This document shows, in pieces, positions 45,066-53,441 of a stretch of DNA of 64,000 nucleotides. Where the stretch lies: the NCBI RefSeq assembly GCF_003334815.1, contig NZ_QOWO01000025.1. The stretch is one strand, 5' to 3'. A program made the position numbers and the translations under genes. How positions within the stretch are numbered: position 1 is the stretch's first letter; each line of letters begins with the position of its first letter. This DNA comes from Escherichia coli (GTDB taxonomy: Bacteria; Pseudomonadota; Gammaproteobacteria; Enterobacterales; Enterobacteriaceae). The notes beneath the pieces were generated by a model. It saw only the letters and a list, made by a program, of their open reading frames with translations. It was not told the origin of the DNA and ran no database searches.

Positions 45066-46736
45066 ATGGATAATGCAGAACTCGCCATTGGTATCGATCT
45101 CGGTACTACCAATAGTTTAATTGCCGTCTGGAAAGACGGTGCCGCGCAATTAATTCCAAATAAGTTCGGTGAATATTTAACACCATCCATAATTAGCATG
45201 GATGAAAATAATCATATTTTAGTCGGAAAACCGGCTGTATCACGGCGTACTTCGCATCCGGATAAAACGGCAGCGTTATTTAAACGTGCAATGGGCAGTA
45301 ATACCAACTGGCGGTTAGGCAGCGACACATTTAACGCGCCAGAACTGTCCTCTTTGGTATTACGCTCATTAAAAGAAGATGCCGAAGAATTTCTGCAACG
45401 TCCGATTAAAGATGTGGTGATCTCCGTTCCGGCTTATTTCAGCGATGAACAACGCAAGCATACCCGTTTAGCAGCGGAGTTAGCCGGGTTAAATGCGGTA
45501 CGCTTAATTAATGAACCCACAGCAGCTGCGATGGCGTATGGCCTGCATACCCAACAAAATACCCGTTCGCTGGTGTTTGATCTCGGTGGCGGCACGTTTG
45601 ACGTTACGGTGCTTGAGTACGCCACGCCGGTGATTGAAGTTCACGCCTCCGCTGGCGACAACTTTCTTGGTGGCGAAGATTTTACCCATATGCTGGTCGA
45701 TGAGGTTTTAAAACGCGCGGATGTCGCCAGGACCACGCTTAACGAGAGTGAACTGGCAGCCTTGTACGCCTGTGTGGAAGCGGCAAAATGTAGCAATCAA
45801 TCGCCATTGCACATTCGCTGGCAGTATCAGGAAGAAACGCGGGAATGCGAATTTTACGAGAACGAACTGGAAGATTTGTGGTTGCCGCTGCTCAATCGCT
45901 TGCGAGTGCCGATTGAACAGGCGTTGCGCGATGCGCGTCTGAAGCCGAGTCAAATCGACAGTCTGGTGCTGGTTGGCGGCGCGTCACAAATGCCGCTGGT
46001 GCAGCGAATCGCCGTGCGTCTGTTTGGCAAATTACCGTATCAAAGTTACGATCCGAGCACCATTGTCGCGCTGGGCGCAGCAATCCAGGCCGCCTGCCGC
46101 TTACGCAGTGAAGATATTGAAGAGGTAATCCTCACTGATATTTGCCCTTACTCGTTGGGCGTTGAAGTTAACCGCCAGGGCGTTTCCGGCATTTTCTCGC
46201 CGATTATTGAACGAAACACCACTGTGCCCGTGTCGCGTGTAGAAACTTATTCAACCATGCACCCGGAACAGGATTCAATTACGGTTAACGTCTATCAGGG
46301 AGAAAACCACAAAGTTAAAAACAACATTCTGGTGGAATCCTTCGATGTGCCGTTGAAGAAAACCGGGGCTTATCAGTCGATTGATATTCGCTTTAGTTAT
46401 GATATCAACGGGTTGCTTGAAGTTGACGTGCTTCTGGAAGACGGCAGCGTTAAGTCCAGAGTGATTAACCACAGCCCGGTAACATTGAGCGCGCAGCAGA
46501 TTGAAGAGAGTCGGACGCGGTTATCCGCATTGAAAATTTATCCGCGCGATATGCTCATCAATCGCACCTTTAAAGCCAAACTGGAAGAGTTGTGGGCGCG
46601 GGCGCTGGGTGACGAGCGAGAAGAGATCGGCCGGGTGATCACCGATTTTGATGCGGCGTTGCAGTCAAACGATATGGCCCGCGTGGATGAAGTTCGGCGG
46701 CGGGCGAGCGATTATTTAGCCATTGAGATCCCATAA
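45066..46736 (+). CDS. hscC: Hsp70-family chaperone HscC (Hsc62)
   Basis: 556-aa ORF with Hsp70 N-terminal signature IGIDLGTTNS and DLGGGTFD; short C-terminal region relative to DnaK. Confidence 0.9.
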   Translation: MDNAELAIGIDLGTTNSLIAVWKDGAAQLIPNKFGEYLTPSIISMDENNHILVGKPAVSRRTSHPDKTAALFKRAMGSNTNWRLGSDTFNAPELSSLVLRSLKEDAEEFLQRPIKDVVISVPAYFSDEQRKHTRLAAELAGLNAVRLINEPTAAAMAYGLHTQQNTRSLVFDLGGGTFDVTVLEYATPVIEVHASAGDNFLGGEDFTHMLVDEVLKRADVARTTLNESELAALYACVEAAKCSNQSPLHIRWQYQEETRECEFYENELEDLWLPLLNRLRVPIEQALRDARLKPSQIDSLVLVGGASQMPLVQRIAVRLFGKLPYQSYDPSTIVALGAAIQAACRLRSEDIEEVILTDICPYSLGVEVNRQGVSGIFSPIIERNTTVPVSRVETYSTMHPEQDSITVNVYQGENHKVKNNILVESFDVPLKKTGAYQSIDIRFSYDINGLLEVDVLLEDGSVKSRVINHSPVTLSAQQIEESRTRLSALKIYPRDMLINRTFKAKLEELWARALGDEREEIGRVITDFDAALQSNDMARVDEVRRRASDYLAIEIP

Positions 46737-46740
46737 ACAC

Positions 46741-46790
46741 GGCTGCCGGATGCGGCGTAAACGCTGCATCCGGCATCGGCGCAAAAAACA
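46741..46790. repeat. REP-like palindrome between convergent hscC and djlC
   Basis: gctgccggatgcggcgtaaacgctgcatccggcatcggc; probable bidirectional terminator. Confidence 0.6.
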
Positions 46791-46795
46791 CATCG

Positions 46796-51748: not shown

Positions 51749-51911
51749 ATAATTTATCCTTAAATATTCATTAAATGAATATTAGCCGCATTGCGAGGCT
51801 CGTTTATTTATACTTTTCTGACGCGACATAATACGCATAAAATAAGGCTTACGCAAAAATGGAACACATAAAAATATAATATGTTTTATCTGCAACCATA
51901 AGGAAATGATA

Positions 51912-52889
51912 ATGATTTTCACGTCAAGTTGCTGCGATAATTTATCAATAGATGAGATTATCGAACGTGCTGAAAAAGGCGATTGCGAGGCTCAATATAT
52001 TGTTGGGTTTTATTATAATCGCGATAGCGCAATTGATTCTCCGGACGACGAAAAAGCCTTTTACTGGCTGAAGCTGGCCGCTGAGCAAGGTCATTGTGAA
52101 GCACAGTATTCCTTAGGGCAAAAGTATACCGAGGATAAAAGCCGTCATAAAGATAATGAGCAAGCCATCTTCTGGCTGAAAAAAGCTGCCCTACAAGGCC
52201 ATACTTTCGCTTCCAACGCCCTTGGCTGGACACTGGATCGTGGAGAAGCCCCCAATTATAAAGAAGCGGTTGTCTGGTATCAGATAGCCGCGGAGAGCGG
52301 AATGTCTTATGCGCAAAATAATCTTGGGTGGATGTACAGAAATGGCAACGGAGTCGCAAAAGACTATGCGCTGGCATTTTTCTGGTACAAACAAGCTGCA
52401 TTACAAGGCCATAGTGACGCGCAAAACAATCTGGCCGATCTTTATGAAGACGGAAAAGGCGTTGCTCAAAACAAGACACTCGCCGCATTCTGGTATTTGA
52501 AAAGCGCACAGCAGGGTAATCGGCACGCCCAGTTTCAAATTGCATGGGATTATAACGCTGGCGAAGGGGTGGACCAGGACTATAAGCAAGCGATGTACTG
52601 GTATCTGAAGGCTGCCGCTCAGGGGAGCGTCGGCGCTTACGTCAACATCGGTTATATGTATAAACACGGACAAGGCGTTGAGAAAGATTATCAGGCTGCC
52701 TTTGAATGGTTTACGAAAGCCGCTGAATGCAATGACGCCACTGCCTGGTATAACCTGGCCATTATGTATCACTACGGAGAAGGAAGACCTGTCGATCTCC
52801 GACAGGCTCTCGACCTGTATCGTAAAGTTCAGTCATCCGGAACCAGAGATGTCAGTCAGGAAATTCGTGAGACTGAAGATTTACTGTAG
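51912..52889 (+). CDS. ybeQ: Sel1-repeat protein YbeQ
   Basis: About 325 aa with at least 7 tandem Sel1-like repeats; ATG at 51912 has better ribosome-binding-site spacing than the in-frame ATG at 51906. Confidence 0.85.
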   Translation: MIFTSSCCDNLSIDEIIERAEKGDCEAQYIVGFYYNRDSAIDSPDDEKAFYWLKLAAEQGHCEAQYSLGQKYTEDKSRHKDNEQAIFWLKKAALQGHTFASNALGWTLDRGEAPNYKEAVVWYQIAAESGMSYAQNNLGWMYRNGNGVAKDYALAFFWYKQAALQGHSDAQNNLADLYEDGKGVAQNKTLAAFWYLKSAQQGNRHAQFQIAWDYNAGEGVDQDYKQAMYWYLKAAAQGSVGAYVNIGYMYKHGQGVEKDYQAAFEWFTKAAECNDATAWYNLAIMYHYGEGRPVDLRQALDLYRKVQSSGTRDVSQEIRETEDLL

Positions 52890-52958
52890 AGATAAAAACA
52901 AGGGCCGGGGAATTTCATTCGGCCCATATTCTCTTTATTGCTGTGCGAAATCAGACTA

Positions 52959-53441
52959 TTACGGCTCAAACGGGCGTCTCTGGAACTGGTCATGACCACA
53001 TTTCGGGCATAGCGTCAGCACTTCCGGTGTGTAGATCGGGAGATGGAAGTGACATTTCTCGCAGACCAGATTTCCCAGCCCGACCACTTCTCCGCTGTGA
53101 TAAACCCCATGATGATTGAGGTCCTGGAAAACTTCGCGCCATTCAAGCTGCGTTTTATCGGTGATGTCTGCCAGCTCCTGCCACAAGCTTTCTTTAATCA
53201 CCCGCATAAAGACGCTGTCAGATTCTTCTTTCAGGCTCTCTTCATAGCTCATGGCGAACTCTTCCAGGTCACGTCTGACAGCTCGCGTCAGCTCATCGAC
53301 CTCGGTTCGCGTTAACTCCCCTGTTTTTATTACGCGCTCGCGCGCCTGTTCCACCAGTGCGTCGATATCACGTTCGCCATTGCGCAGGCGTTCGCTCAGT
53401 GACGCAACCAGTTCACGGTAATATTGAGCAACCTTGTTCAT
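52959..53441 (-). CDS. ybeL: DUF1451-family protein YbeL with C-terminal CxxC zinc-ribbon-like pair
   Basis: 160-aa ORF MNKVAQYYRELVASLSERLRNGERDIDALVEQARER...; C-terminal CEKCHFH...CPKCGHDQF. Confidence 0.85.
   Translation of the reverse strand: MNKVAQYYRELVASLSERLRNGERDIDALVEQARERVIKTGELTRTEVDELTRAVRRDLEEFAMSYEESLKEESDSVFMRVIKESLWQELADITDKTQLEWREVFQDLNHHGVYHSGEVVGLGNLVCEKCHFHLPIYTPEVLTLCPKCGHDQFQRRPFEP

Follow-up and report, generated by a model that had tools for sequence, protein, structure and literature searches.

A variable island between rihA and ybeL of Escherichia coli encodes a candidate membrane-tethered Hsp70 machine with DUF1266 proteins as putative third components

Introduction

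HscC is the least understood of the three Hsp70 proteins of Escherichia coli and has been left for more than 20 years without a known client or mechanism. Here, we analyze the hscC locus as it occurs in a 64,000-nucleotide stretch of E. coli DNA (contig NZ_QOWO01000025.1 of assembly GCF_003334815.1; hereafter the window), in which the K-12-type block hscC–djlC–ybeU–ybeT–djlB–ybeR–ybeQ is sited between rihA and leuS. Four of the seven genes in this block (ybeQ, ybeR, ybeT and ybeU) have no described function, and two of these four, ybeR and ybeU, code for proteins of the DUF1266 family.

HscC, DjlB and DjlC have been described as the third Hsp70 system of E. coli, and the genes concerned lie at the same locus and are 100% identical to those analyzed here (Kluck et al. 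2002, as summarized in PMC8215388). According to PMC8215388, the ATPase activity of HscC is stimulated by DjlC, whereas DnaJ, CbpA and HscB have no such effect (Kluck et al. 2002), DjlC is tail-anchored and inserts into the membrane, and the ΔhscC and ΔdjlBΔdjlC mutants are both sensitive to Cd2+, the ΔhscC mutant being sensitive to UV as well. During exponential growth HscC, DjlB and DjlC are under the limit of proteomic detection, and their function is called unknown (PMC8215388). Overexpression of HscC inhibits growth and sigma-70-dependent transcription, and sigma-70 co-purifies with HscC (Arifuzzaman 2002, as cited in PMC3861889). At the level of expression, ybeT and ybeU-djlC are induced by SlyA and are listed as part of the H-NS regulon (PMC5797941), and in an hns mutant of strain 042 one of the genes with the strongest derepression codes for a DUF1266 protein (PMC7582179). 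In the searchable literature one paper mentioned DUF1266, solely by name in a table of expression data, and ybeQ, ybeR, ybeT and ybeU came up only in gene lists; the RRS paper names djlC only as a neutral insertion site. The initial annotation of the window described HscC, DjlB and DjlC as a partly studied specialized Hsp70 system, and this is borne out by the literature: the genes, the locus and the HscC–DjlB/DjlC partnership are already known (PMC8215388).

Results

Two DUF1266 genes are each coupled to a gene for a tail-anchored J-protein

By the list of open reading frames (ORFs), the block is flanked by gltJKL-rihA on one side and by ybeL-leuS-lptE-holA on the other. A 10.5-kb query around it is 100% identical to several complete E. 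coli chromosomes, in which RefSeq names the genes rihA, hscC, djlC, ybeU, ybeT, djlB, ybeR, ybeQ, ybeL and leuS. The seven genes of the block are arranged in exactly the layout that the initial annotation had read:

45066-46736, plus strand: hscC, atypical Hsp70 of 556 amino acids (aa), assigned by its ORF, model matches and RefSeq name
46796-48247, minus strand: djlC, 483-aa tail-anchored protein that has an N-terminal J-like domain (HPE, residue 31) and a predicted transmembrane segment at residues 458-476
48244-48951, minus strand: ybeU, 235-aa DUF1266 protein, the stop codon sharing 4 bp (ATGA) with the start of djlC
49053-49607, plus strand: ybeT, Sel1-repeat protein of 184 aa with a predicted N-terminal signal or anchor segment at residues 5-23, of doubtful membership in the system
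49617-51044, minus strand: djlB, 475-aa tail-anchored protein that has an N-terminal J-like domain (HPE, residue 31) and a predicted transmembrane segment at residues 449-467
51041-51748, minus strand: ybeR, 235-aa DUF1266 protein, its gene running 4 bp (ATGA) into djlB
51906-52889, plus strand: ybeQ, 327-aa protein, predicted to be cytoplasmic, that has 8 Sel1 repeats

At both junctions between a DUF1266 gene and a J-protein gene the sequence reads ...CTATGAAAA, in which the TGA stop of the former and the ATG start of the latter share 4 bp (ATGA); the overlap that had been proposed for both modules is thus confirmed by the junction sequence.

HscC combines the actin-like ATPase and substrate-binding domains of an Hsp70 and, at 556 aa, falls within a size range of 550-580 aa that is shorter than DnaK. 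The DnaK and HscA models match residues 7-482 (E ~1e-113 to 1e-115) with scores under the equivalog cut-offs, as would be expected for a distinct Hsp70 subfamily. DjlC and DjlB each have one C-terminal transmembrane segment by hydropathy, which is the topology of a tail-anchored protein. Against the Pfam DnaJ model, DjlC scores weakly (E = 0.036) and its Pragia ortholog significantly (6.7e-6), and PF27158 (DjlB_C_2nd), a newer Pfam family, is recorded on the Salmonella orthologs of DjlC.

YbeU is a full-length DUF1266 protein (PF06889, E = 4.7e-45, model positions 2-175 of 175). AlphaFold2 modeling with a 68-sequence alignment gave an all-helical bundle of ~12 helices (predicted local distance difference test score (pLDDT) 93.8; predicted template modeling score (pTM) 0.91), and an earlier run with an 11-sequence alignment (pLDDT 58) was discarded. 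When this model was compared with the PDB using Foldseek, nothing was found below E = 0.5, and the matches in AFDB50 were DUF1266 proteins only, from Enterobacterales, Pseudomonas-group species, Vibrio, Shewanella and Firmicutes. Residues W45, W117, D118, R121, R127, E139, W158, G168, W172 and W216 are nearly invariant in the family. Two entries of the AlphaFold database are noted here in their own right. A0A077ZGN2, a 932-aa "DnaJ-like subfamily C member 13" of Trichuris trichiura, is 97% identical to YbeU over 154 residues, which suggests bacterial contamination of the helminth assembly, and A0A2X3M2D5 ("Hsc56 co-chaperone", 627 aa) has the appearance of a gene call in which ybeU and djlC are fused.

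The association of DUF1266 with J-proteins and Hsp70 is conserved

The initial annotation allowed that the DUF1266 genes could be passengers that are not linked to J-protein and Hsp70 genes in other genomes. The comparisons do not refute a linkage, and in most loci the association is conserved. Scanning of a genome collection with peptide patterns from the YbeU alignment gave 9 loci, all from close relatives including one contaminated Paenibacillus contig; an exhaustive profile search gave 1,429 DUF1266 cluster representatives, and for the distant gene context ten stand-alone DUF1266 representatives were looked up singly.

All genome loci examined have DUF1266 coupled to a DjlB/C-type gene, with 1 to 3 DUF1266/J-protein pairs per locus, and in most loci an HscC-type Hsp70 is adjacent or within ~3.5 kb. 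Three Escherichia clades have the full E. coli arrangement. Salmonella has ybeL-YbeQ-like-[DUF1266-J]x2-HscC, with 11 bp between the pairs and no ybeT, and Klebsiella spallanzanii has at the same chromosomal site a minimal ybeL-[DUF1266-J(472 aa)-HscC] with no Sel1 gene. In Leminorella, Pragia and Limnobaculum the DUF1266 gene (38-45% identity) overlaps by 4 bp the gene for a J-protein of ~905 aa, which matches DnaJ significantly and carries a DUF805 membrane domain at its C-terminus, and HscC (63% identity) lies 1.3-3 kb off in Pragia and Limnobaculum. Short-overlap coupling also occurs at the distant loci L015, L016, L017 and L019, where DUF1266 is only 22-26% identical to YbeU.

Nine of the ten distant representatives are coupled to a DjlB/C-type or TPR-rich partner, counting the cut-off ORFs at P0262, P0218 and P0235, two of these ORFs being TPR-like and on short contigs, and two architectures can be told apart. 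In class 1 the DUF1266 gene comes first. At P0143, P0149, P0157 and P0163, DUF1266 is followed by an HPE J-protein with a coding overlap of 4 bp in three cases and of 14 bp in one; two of these loci have a convergent HSP70 adjoining and one has two pairs together with a third J gene. All twelve class-1 J-proteins examined keep HPE, not HPD, as the tripeptide and have one or more C-terminal transmembrane segments; HPE has been reported as the sole tolerated variant of HPD (PMC13254874). An acidic C-terminal tail (…P-x-[ST]-L-x-[DE]-[VM]-[SD]-[DW]-x) is common to class-1 DUF1266 proteins and is lacking in class 2. In class 2 the gene for the J-like protein comes first, the motif has degenerated (NPE, PPA), a membrane segment is lacking, and Hsp70 may or may not be nearby. 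P0171 and P0212 have this reverse order, in which a 714-717-aa TPR-rich J-like protein with PF27158 is followed by DUF1266, in one case with an Hsp70 upstream. At P0262 a cut-off upstream ORF that overlaps DUF1266 is weakly similar to the TPR region of the P0171/P0212 type (E ~1e-4), the same arrangement at P0218 has a weaker similarity to this region (E = 0.002), and the cut-off upstream ORF at P0235, on a 1-kb contig, is TPR-like in appearance only. Among 42 multi-domain DUF1266 proteins, TPR is found in 6-9, a copper-amine-oxidase N-terminal domain in 6 and a J-domain in one; P0264 (497 aa) has a DjlC-like J-domain (HHPE, E = 1e-13 to DjlC), TPR and DUF1266 in a single chain.

Several of the loci have features of their own. 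At L009 (NZ_WTWY01000015.1, "Paenibacillus sp. USDA918EY", 10001-10387) the contig end is 100% identical to residues 81-209 of E. coli YbeU, which is almost certainly due to E. coli contamination or to a chimeric contig. Between hscC and rihA, Salmonella enterica has a 412-aa gene (L014, 14082-15320, minus strand) that matches nothing in Pfam, PHROG or the E. coli island and that may either be one more gene of the island or have been inserted separately. Escherichia sp. MOD1-EC7003 (L005, 3648-5986) has between ybeL and ybeQ a third DjlB/C-like gene with no DUF1266 upstream, which is split into a 93-aa ORF with the HPE J-domain and a tail-anchored 344-aa ORF and is followed by a 321-aa signal-peptide protein with no family match. 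In K. spallanzanii (L008, 14020-17532) the interval between hscC and gltL, which in E. coli is occupied by rihA, holds a two-partner-secretion-like gene pair for a repeat-rich exoprotein of 592 aa and a transporter-like protein of 556 aa, and this site appears to be a small insertion hotspot. Four plasmids of Erwinia persicina (130-165 kb; L024 = p_Cp2, 7974-11337) carry a DUF1266 gene (39% identity) that overlaps a gene with a J-domain; after these come broken-up ORFs and a DUF805 gene, which resembles a decayed long-type J-protein, and the following 3 kb, in which no gene is listed, could conceal an Hsp70 pseudogene. In a single case (L021, 10-423, GCA_040369735.1) a gene of the Tae4 family (type VI amidase effector) is located ~2.6 kb upstream of an Hsp70-J(TPR)-DUF1266 operon.

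The tandem duplication comprises the DUF1266 and J-protein genes and is old

YbeU and YbeR are 59% identical over 235 aa without gaps, DjlC and DjlB are 49% identical, and blocks of DNA repeats with 71-77% identity recur at a constant register of 2,797 bp. This register confirms that the tandem duplication consists of the DUF1266 and J unit only. YbeT and YbeQ are ~36% identical, which is only the level of Sel1 repeats in general, the sole DNA repeat that they share is at 2,847 bp and out of register with the 2,797 bp, and their predicted compartments differ in that YbeT has an N-terminal hydrophobic segment (residues 5-23) and YbeQ has none. Because of this register, the different compartments and the lack of ybeT in Salmonella, we regard the two modules as true paralogs only with respect to the DUF1266 and J pair.

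YbeQ has 7 Sel1 repeats (PF08238) at E <= 4.3e-4 and one weaker repeat, and YbeT aligns to the Sel1 repeats of YbeQ and to Sel1-type NCBIfam models. YbeQ/YbeT-like Sel1 genes are found only in the loci of Escherichia (ybeQ and ybeT) and Salmonella (ybeQ), the Salmonella ortholog of YbeQ being 49% identical and in the same position. Since ybeT is absent from the Salmonella, K. spallanzanii and Budviciaceae loci examined, it is specific to Escherichia among these loci, and at the corresponding site Salmonella has the 11-bp spacer. YbeT, which probably faces the periplasm, is probably a later insertion or passenger, because it is confined to Escherichia, has the lowest GC content in the island (42.9%) and is placed where Salmonella has this spacer. 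For YbeQ a role as a lineage-specific extra accessory adaptor is plausible since it is predicted to be cytoplasmic, is linked to the island in two genera and belongs to a class of repeat that is fused to the system elsewhere. The proposal that each module has its own Sel1 adaptor therefore stands in part: separate Sel1 genes are restricted to Escherichia and Salmonella, whereas TPR is fused to the J-like partner or to DUF1266 elsewhere, and a helical-repeat link is plausible for YbeQ and doubtful for YbeT.

The Salmonella pairs are congruent with those of E. coli (YbeR with DjlB, YbeU with DjlC). Because each Salmonella pair is closest to the matching E. coli pair, the duplication is older than the split between the two genera, which bears out the initial annotation's view that it is old. 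The ratio of nonsynonymous to synonymous substitution rates (dN/dS), computed against three Escherichia clades, is 0.02-0.03 for hscC and 0.005-0.04 for rihA, leuS and ybeL, and it amounts to 0.10-0.15 for djlB and djlC, 0.06-0.12 for ybeU and ybeR, and 0.075-0.125 for ybeT and ybeQ. All genes are under purifying selection and functional, with the accessory genes evolving at four to six times the rate of hscC. The pattern recurs in the identities between E. coli and Salmonella, which are 83% for HscC, 60-64% for DUF1266, 44-54% for the J-proteins and 49% for YbeQ.

The block is a variable island in E. coli

Among 5,426 complete E. coli genomes, hscC is present in 4,410 (81%), the djlB-ybeR segment has matches in 4,416, with at least 80% of the segment in 3,713, and the whole block is covered to at least 80% in 3,658 (67%). 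About 19% of the genomes have no island and ~14% have partial forms. Thus, the presence/absence polymorphism at rihA-leuS that the initial annotation had singled out for a survey does exist, with hscC in 81% of genomes and empty rihA–ybeL sites, and the closely similar counts for hscC (4,410) and the module (4,416) indicate joint gain and loss. One partial form has lost ybeR, the greater part of djlB and the 5' portion of ybeQ to a deletion, and a second is an apparent recombinant of the two modules with a frameshifted djlC and an internal stop in ybeQ; insertion sequence (IS) insertions were seen in hscC and in djlB/ybeR. In the band of 90-95% identity there are 735 genomes for djlB-ybeR and 90 for hscC, which corresponds to more allelic divergence in djlB-ybeR.

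Comparison with the empty site places the edges of the island, which is ~8 kb long, at ~44986 and ~52957. In strains lacking the island, rihA is followed by 39 bp with a hairpin resembling a repetitive extragenic palindromic (REP) element and then by ybeL. Neither edge of the island was seen to carry an integrase, a tRNA gene or flanking direct repeats. The GC content is 46.9% in the island and 51.8% and 52.4% in the flanks, and the GC content at third codon positions is 0.38-0.53 in island genes and 0.55-0.62 in most flanking genes (rihA, 0.51). The block had been described as AT-rich, and its GC content is indeed lower than in the flanks (46.9% versus ~52%), but the AT-richness is only moderate. 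Presence/absence polymorphism within the species and deviating GC content are both features of a genomic island. In addition to the genes, the following features lie in or next to it:

46737-46795, unstranded: convergent spacer between hscC and djlC, 59 bp, in which a REP-like GC-rich palindrome GCCGGATGCGGCG...CATCCGGC is read in the sequence
48952-49052, unstranded: divergent control region between ybeU and ybeT, 101 bp, 28% GC
51749-51905, unstranded: divergent control region between ybeR and ybeQ, 157 bp, 29% GC
52902-52925, plus strand: terminator-like hairpin 3' of ybeQ, at the right-hand edge of the variable island
52959-53441, minus strand: ybeL, DUF1451 zinc-ribbon protein, a core flanking gene outside the island

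The palindrome between hscC and djlC is probably a bidirectional terminator, and REP-like GC-rich palindromes occur both in this spacer and in the rihA/ybeL spacer of island-less strains (L002, 1486-1522). A scan of 44000-54000 with Rfam found no RNA family. The placing of ybeL at the end of the block by the initial annotation is refuted: ybeL is a core gene because it is retained next to rihA where the island is absent, and it is core-like in GC content (52.6%) and in dN/dS (0.005-0.014). YbeL matches PRK11032, a zinc-ribbon protein, is 99-100% identical across Escherichia clades and 83% identical in Klebsiella, and its gene always adjoins leuS.

A fragment spanning ybeU-ybeT (96.7% identity) occurs at 1-1219 of the 174-kb E. 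coli D3 plasmid A (L003, NZ_CP010141.1), where its neighbors are a truncated transposase, remains of a phage tail and a mer operon, pointing to transposon-mediated capture of part of the island. Most of the E. coli matches in the plasmid collection were rejected as plasmid copies, being Mb-sized records that are probably mislabeled chromosomal sequence. The phage collection gave two matches, both to very small records (1.5-2.6 kb) without annotation that most likely derive from the host.

PADLOC gave zero matches for HscC, DjlB, DjlC, YbeU and YbeR, and only marginal partial matches to unrelated models (E 1e-4 to 5e-3) for YbeT, YbeQ and YbeL. PHROGs gave nothing for DUF1266 or the J-proteins, and its matches to Sel1 and Hsp70 were to generic families of unknown function.

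Discussion

Combining the gene order, comparative and population data with the published work on HscC, we suggest, as the probable reading, that the block is an optional, H-NS-silenced island encoding a dedicated Hsp70 machine that has three components and works on the cytoplasmic side of the inner membrane. In this model, (i) HscC would be the conserved ATPase engine, (ii) DjlB and DjlC would recruit HscC to the membrane and activate it there, (iii) YbeR and YbeU would each be made in fixed proportion to their own J-protein by means of translational coupling, (iv) each DUF1266 protein would most likely bind the central helical DjlB_C region of its own J-protein and serve as a client-selecting or regulatory subunit, and (v) the two old paralogous DUF1266/J pairs would give the single engine two specificities. 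DUF1266 is proposed as a subunit because it is coupled to a J gene in distant lineages and is fused with J and TPR in one lineage, and the persistence of the partnership where the J motif has decayed suggests that the contact is made outside the J-domain, at the helical DjlB_C/TPR part. H-NS silencing probably explains why phenotypes have so far been weak.

A number of observations weigh against this model. The DUF1266 superfamily includes secreted and lipoprotein forms as well as fusions to the copper-amine-oxidase N-terminal domain, and DUF1266 is for this reason not intrinsically part of an Hsp70 system. No Hsp70 was found within the fetched flanks of Leminorella, L015 and L025, and P0201, on a 2.5-kb contig, has two DUF1266 genes and no partner. 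Binding of DUF1266 to the J-protein and its role as an adaptor are inferred, no client of HscC is known, and a fold with no solved relative gives no functional hint.

The same coupling could mean that DUF1266 is a brake that, like CbpM, masks the J-domain of DjlB/DjlC and keeps the potentially toxic HscC idling until a signal is received. CbpA/CbpM provides the precedent of a J-protein with a co-transcribed modulator (PMC8215388), the ATGA overlaps imply stoichiometric co-production, and HscC is toxic when overexpressed (PMC3861889). Yet DUF1266 is still coupled to partners lacking HPD/HPE (NPE, PPA), it is fused C-terminally in P0264, far from the J-domain, and it has neither sequence nor fold similarity to any solved protein. 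The motif-less partners and the C-terminal fusion in P0264 argue that DUF1266 contacts the helical/TPR region and not the J-domain, and we consider a brake unlikely. That the island is decaying baggage, i.e. what is left of a horizontal acquisition, now without a role in E. coli and with a gene order due to historical accident, could be read from the 19% of genomes without it, from the ~14% with frameshifts, internal stops or IS insertions, and from HscC, DjlB and DjlC being below proteomic detection in exponential growth (PMC8215388). However, all seven genes are intact in 67% of genomes with dN/dS of 0.02-0.15, the pairing has been kept in different families and in remote metagenomic lineages, and deletion phenotypes have been published (PMC8215388). 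The dN/dS values and the conservation across taxa largely refute this explanation, which we regard as highly improbable.

The initial annotation also speculated about an anti-phage function. If the locus were a conflict or abortive-infection module, the DUF1266/J pairs (with Sel1) would sense a phage or envelope insult and switch HscC onto a host target such as sigma-70, thereby stopping growth. The polymorphism of presence and decay in E. coli, the lower GC content and H-NS silencing, the conserved engine set against 1 to 3 faster-evolving accessory pairs per locus, the greater divergence of djlB-ybeR than of hscC alleles (735 versus 90 genomes in the 90-95% band), and the toxicity of overexpressed HscC with reduced sigma-70-dependent transcription and co-purification of sigma-70 (PMC3861889) all fit such a module. 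Optional presence, silencing, fast copy-variable pairs and sigma-70 toxicity are, however, equally expected of a dispensable stress module. Moreover, none of the eight proteins has a significant PADLOC match, no effector domain of the nuclease, pore or NADase type was recognized, core genes flank the locus, whose edges show no integrase, tRNA or direct repeats, the system is absent from real phage genomes, dN/dS of ~0.1 gives no sign of pervasive positive selection, and the literature search found no paper that ties the system to phage defense. We find a conflict module quite unlikely and the anti-phage speculation unsupported, there being no meaningful PADLOC match, effector domain, mobile or phage context, or link in the literature. 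A related and distinctly unlikely possibility is a chaperone-based immune or stress switch in which paired DUF1266/J sensors at the inner membrane respond to a cue derived from phage or envelope, load HscC onto sigma-70 or another hub and cause a reversible growth arrest; if this were true, the specificity would come from the fast-evolving duplicated sensor pairs.

Returning to the three-component machine, published accounts of HscC–DjlB/DjlC are of a two-part system of Hsp70 and J-protein, to which the DUF1266 partner, the TPR fusions and the polymorphism are added here. DUF1266 as a conserved third component appears to be undescribed, although Barriot et al. 2020, on bacterial J-proteins, may note the neighborhood. 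The minimal unit of DUF1266, J-protein and HscC, the two architectures, the Rosetta-stone fusion and the E. coli haplotype frequencies also appear to be new. The DUF1266 partner and the minimal unit, as in K. spallanzanii, offer a concrete, testable handle on the HscC system, and they provide the first functional context for one subfamily of the widespread DUF1266 family.

The proposed machine can be set against several known systems. HscA–HscB–IscU is likewise built on a specialized Hsp70 that has its own exclusive J-protein encoded nearby and that, according to the literature, is likely GrpE-independent. HscB is soluble and delivers one known client, in Fe-S cluster transfer, whereas DjlB and DjlC are membrane-anchored, duplicated, carry HPE and come with an extra coupled subunit. 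CbpA–CbpM resembles the DUF1266/J pair in that a small dedicated partner is co-transcribed with a J-protein, but CbpM is encoded downstream and binds the J-domain, whereas DUF1266 is encoded upstream, is unrelated to CbpM and is coupled also to partners without a functional J motif. DjlA, like DjlB and DjlC, tethers Hsp70 activity to the inner membrane; it differs in having an N-terminal anchor and a C-terminal HPD J-domain, in working with DnaK and in having no DUF1266 partner. Eukaryotic co-chaperones of the DNAJC7/TPR2 type combine J and TPR in one polypeptide, as do P0264 and the class-2 proteins. The bacterial proteins add DUF1266, and the likeness, which lies in generic domains, is one of analogy only.

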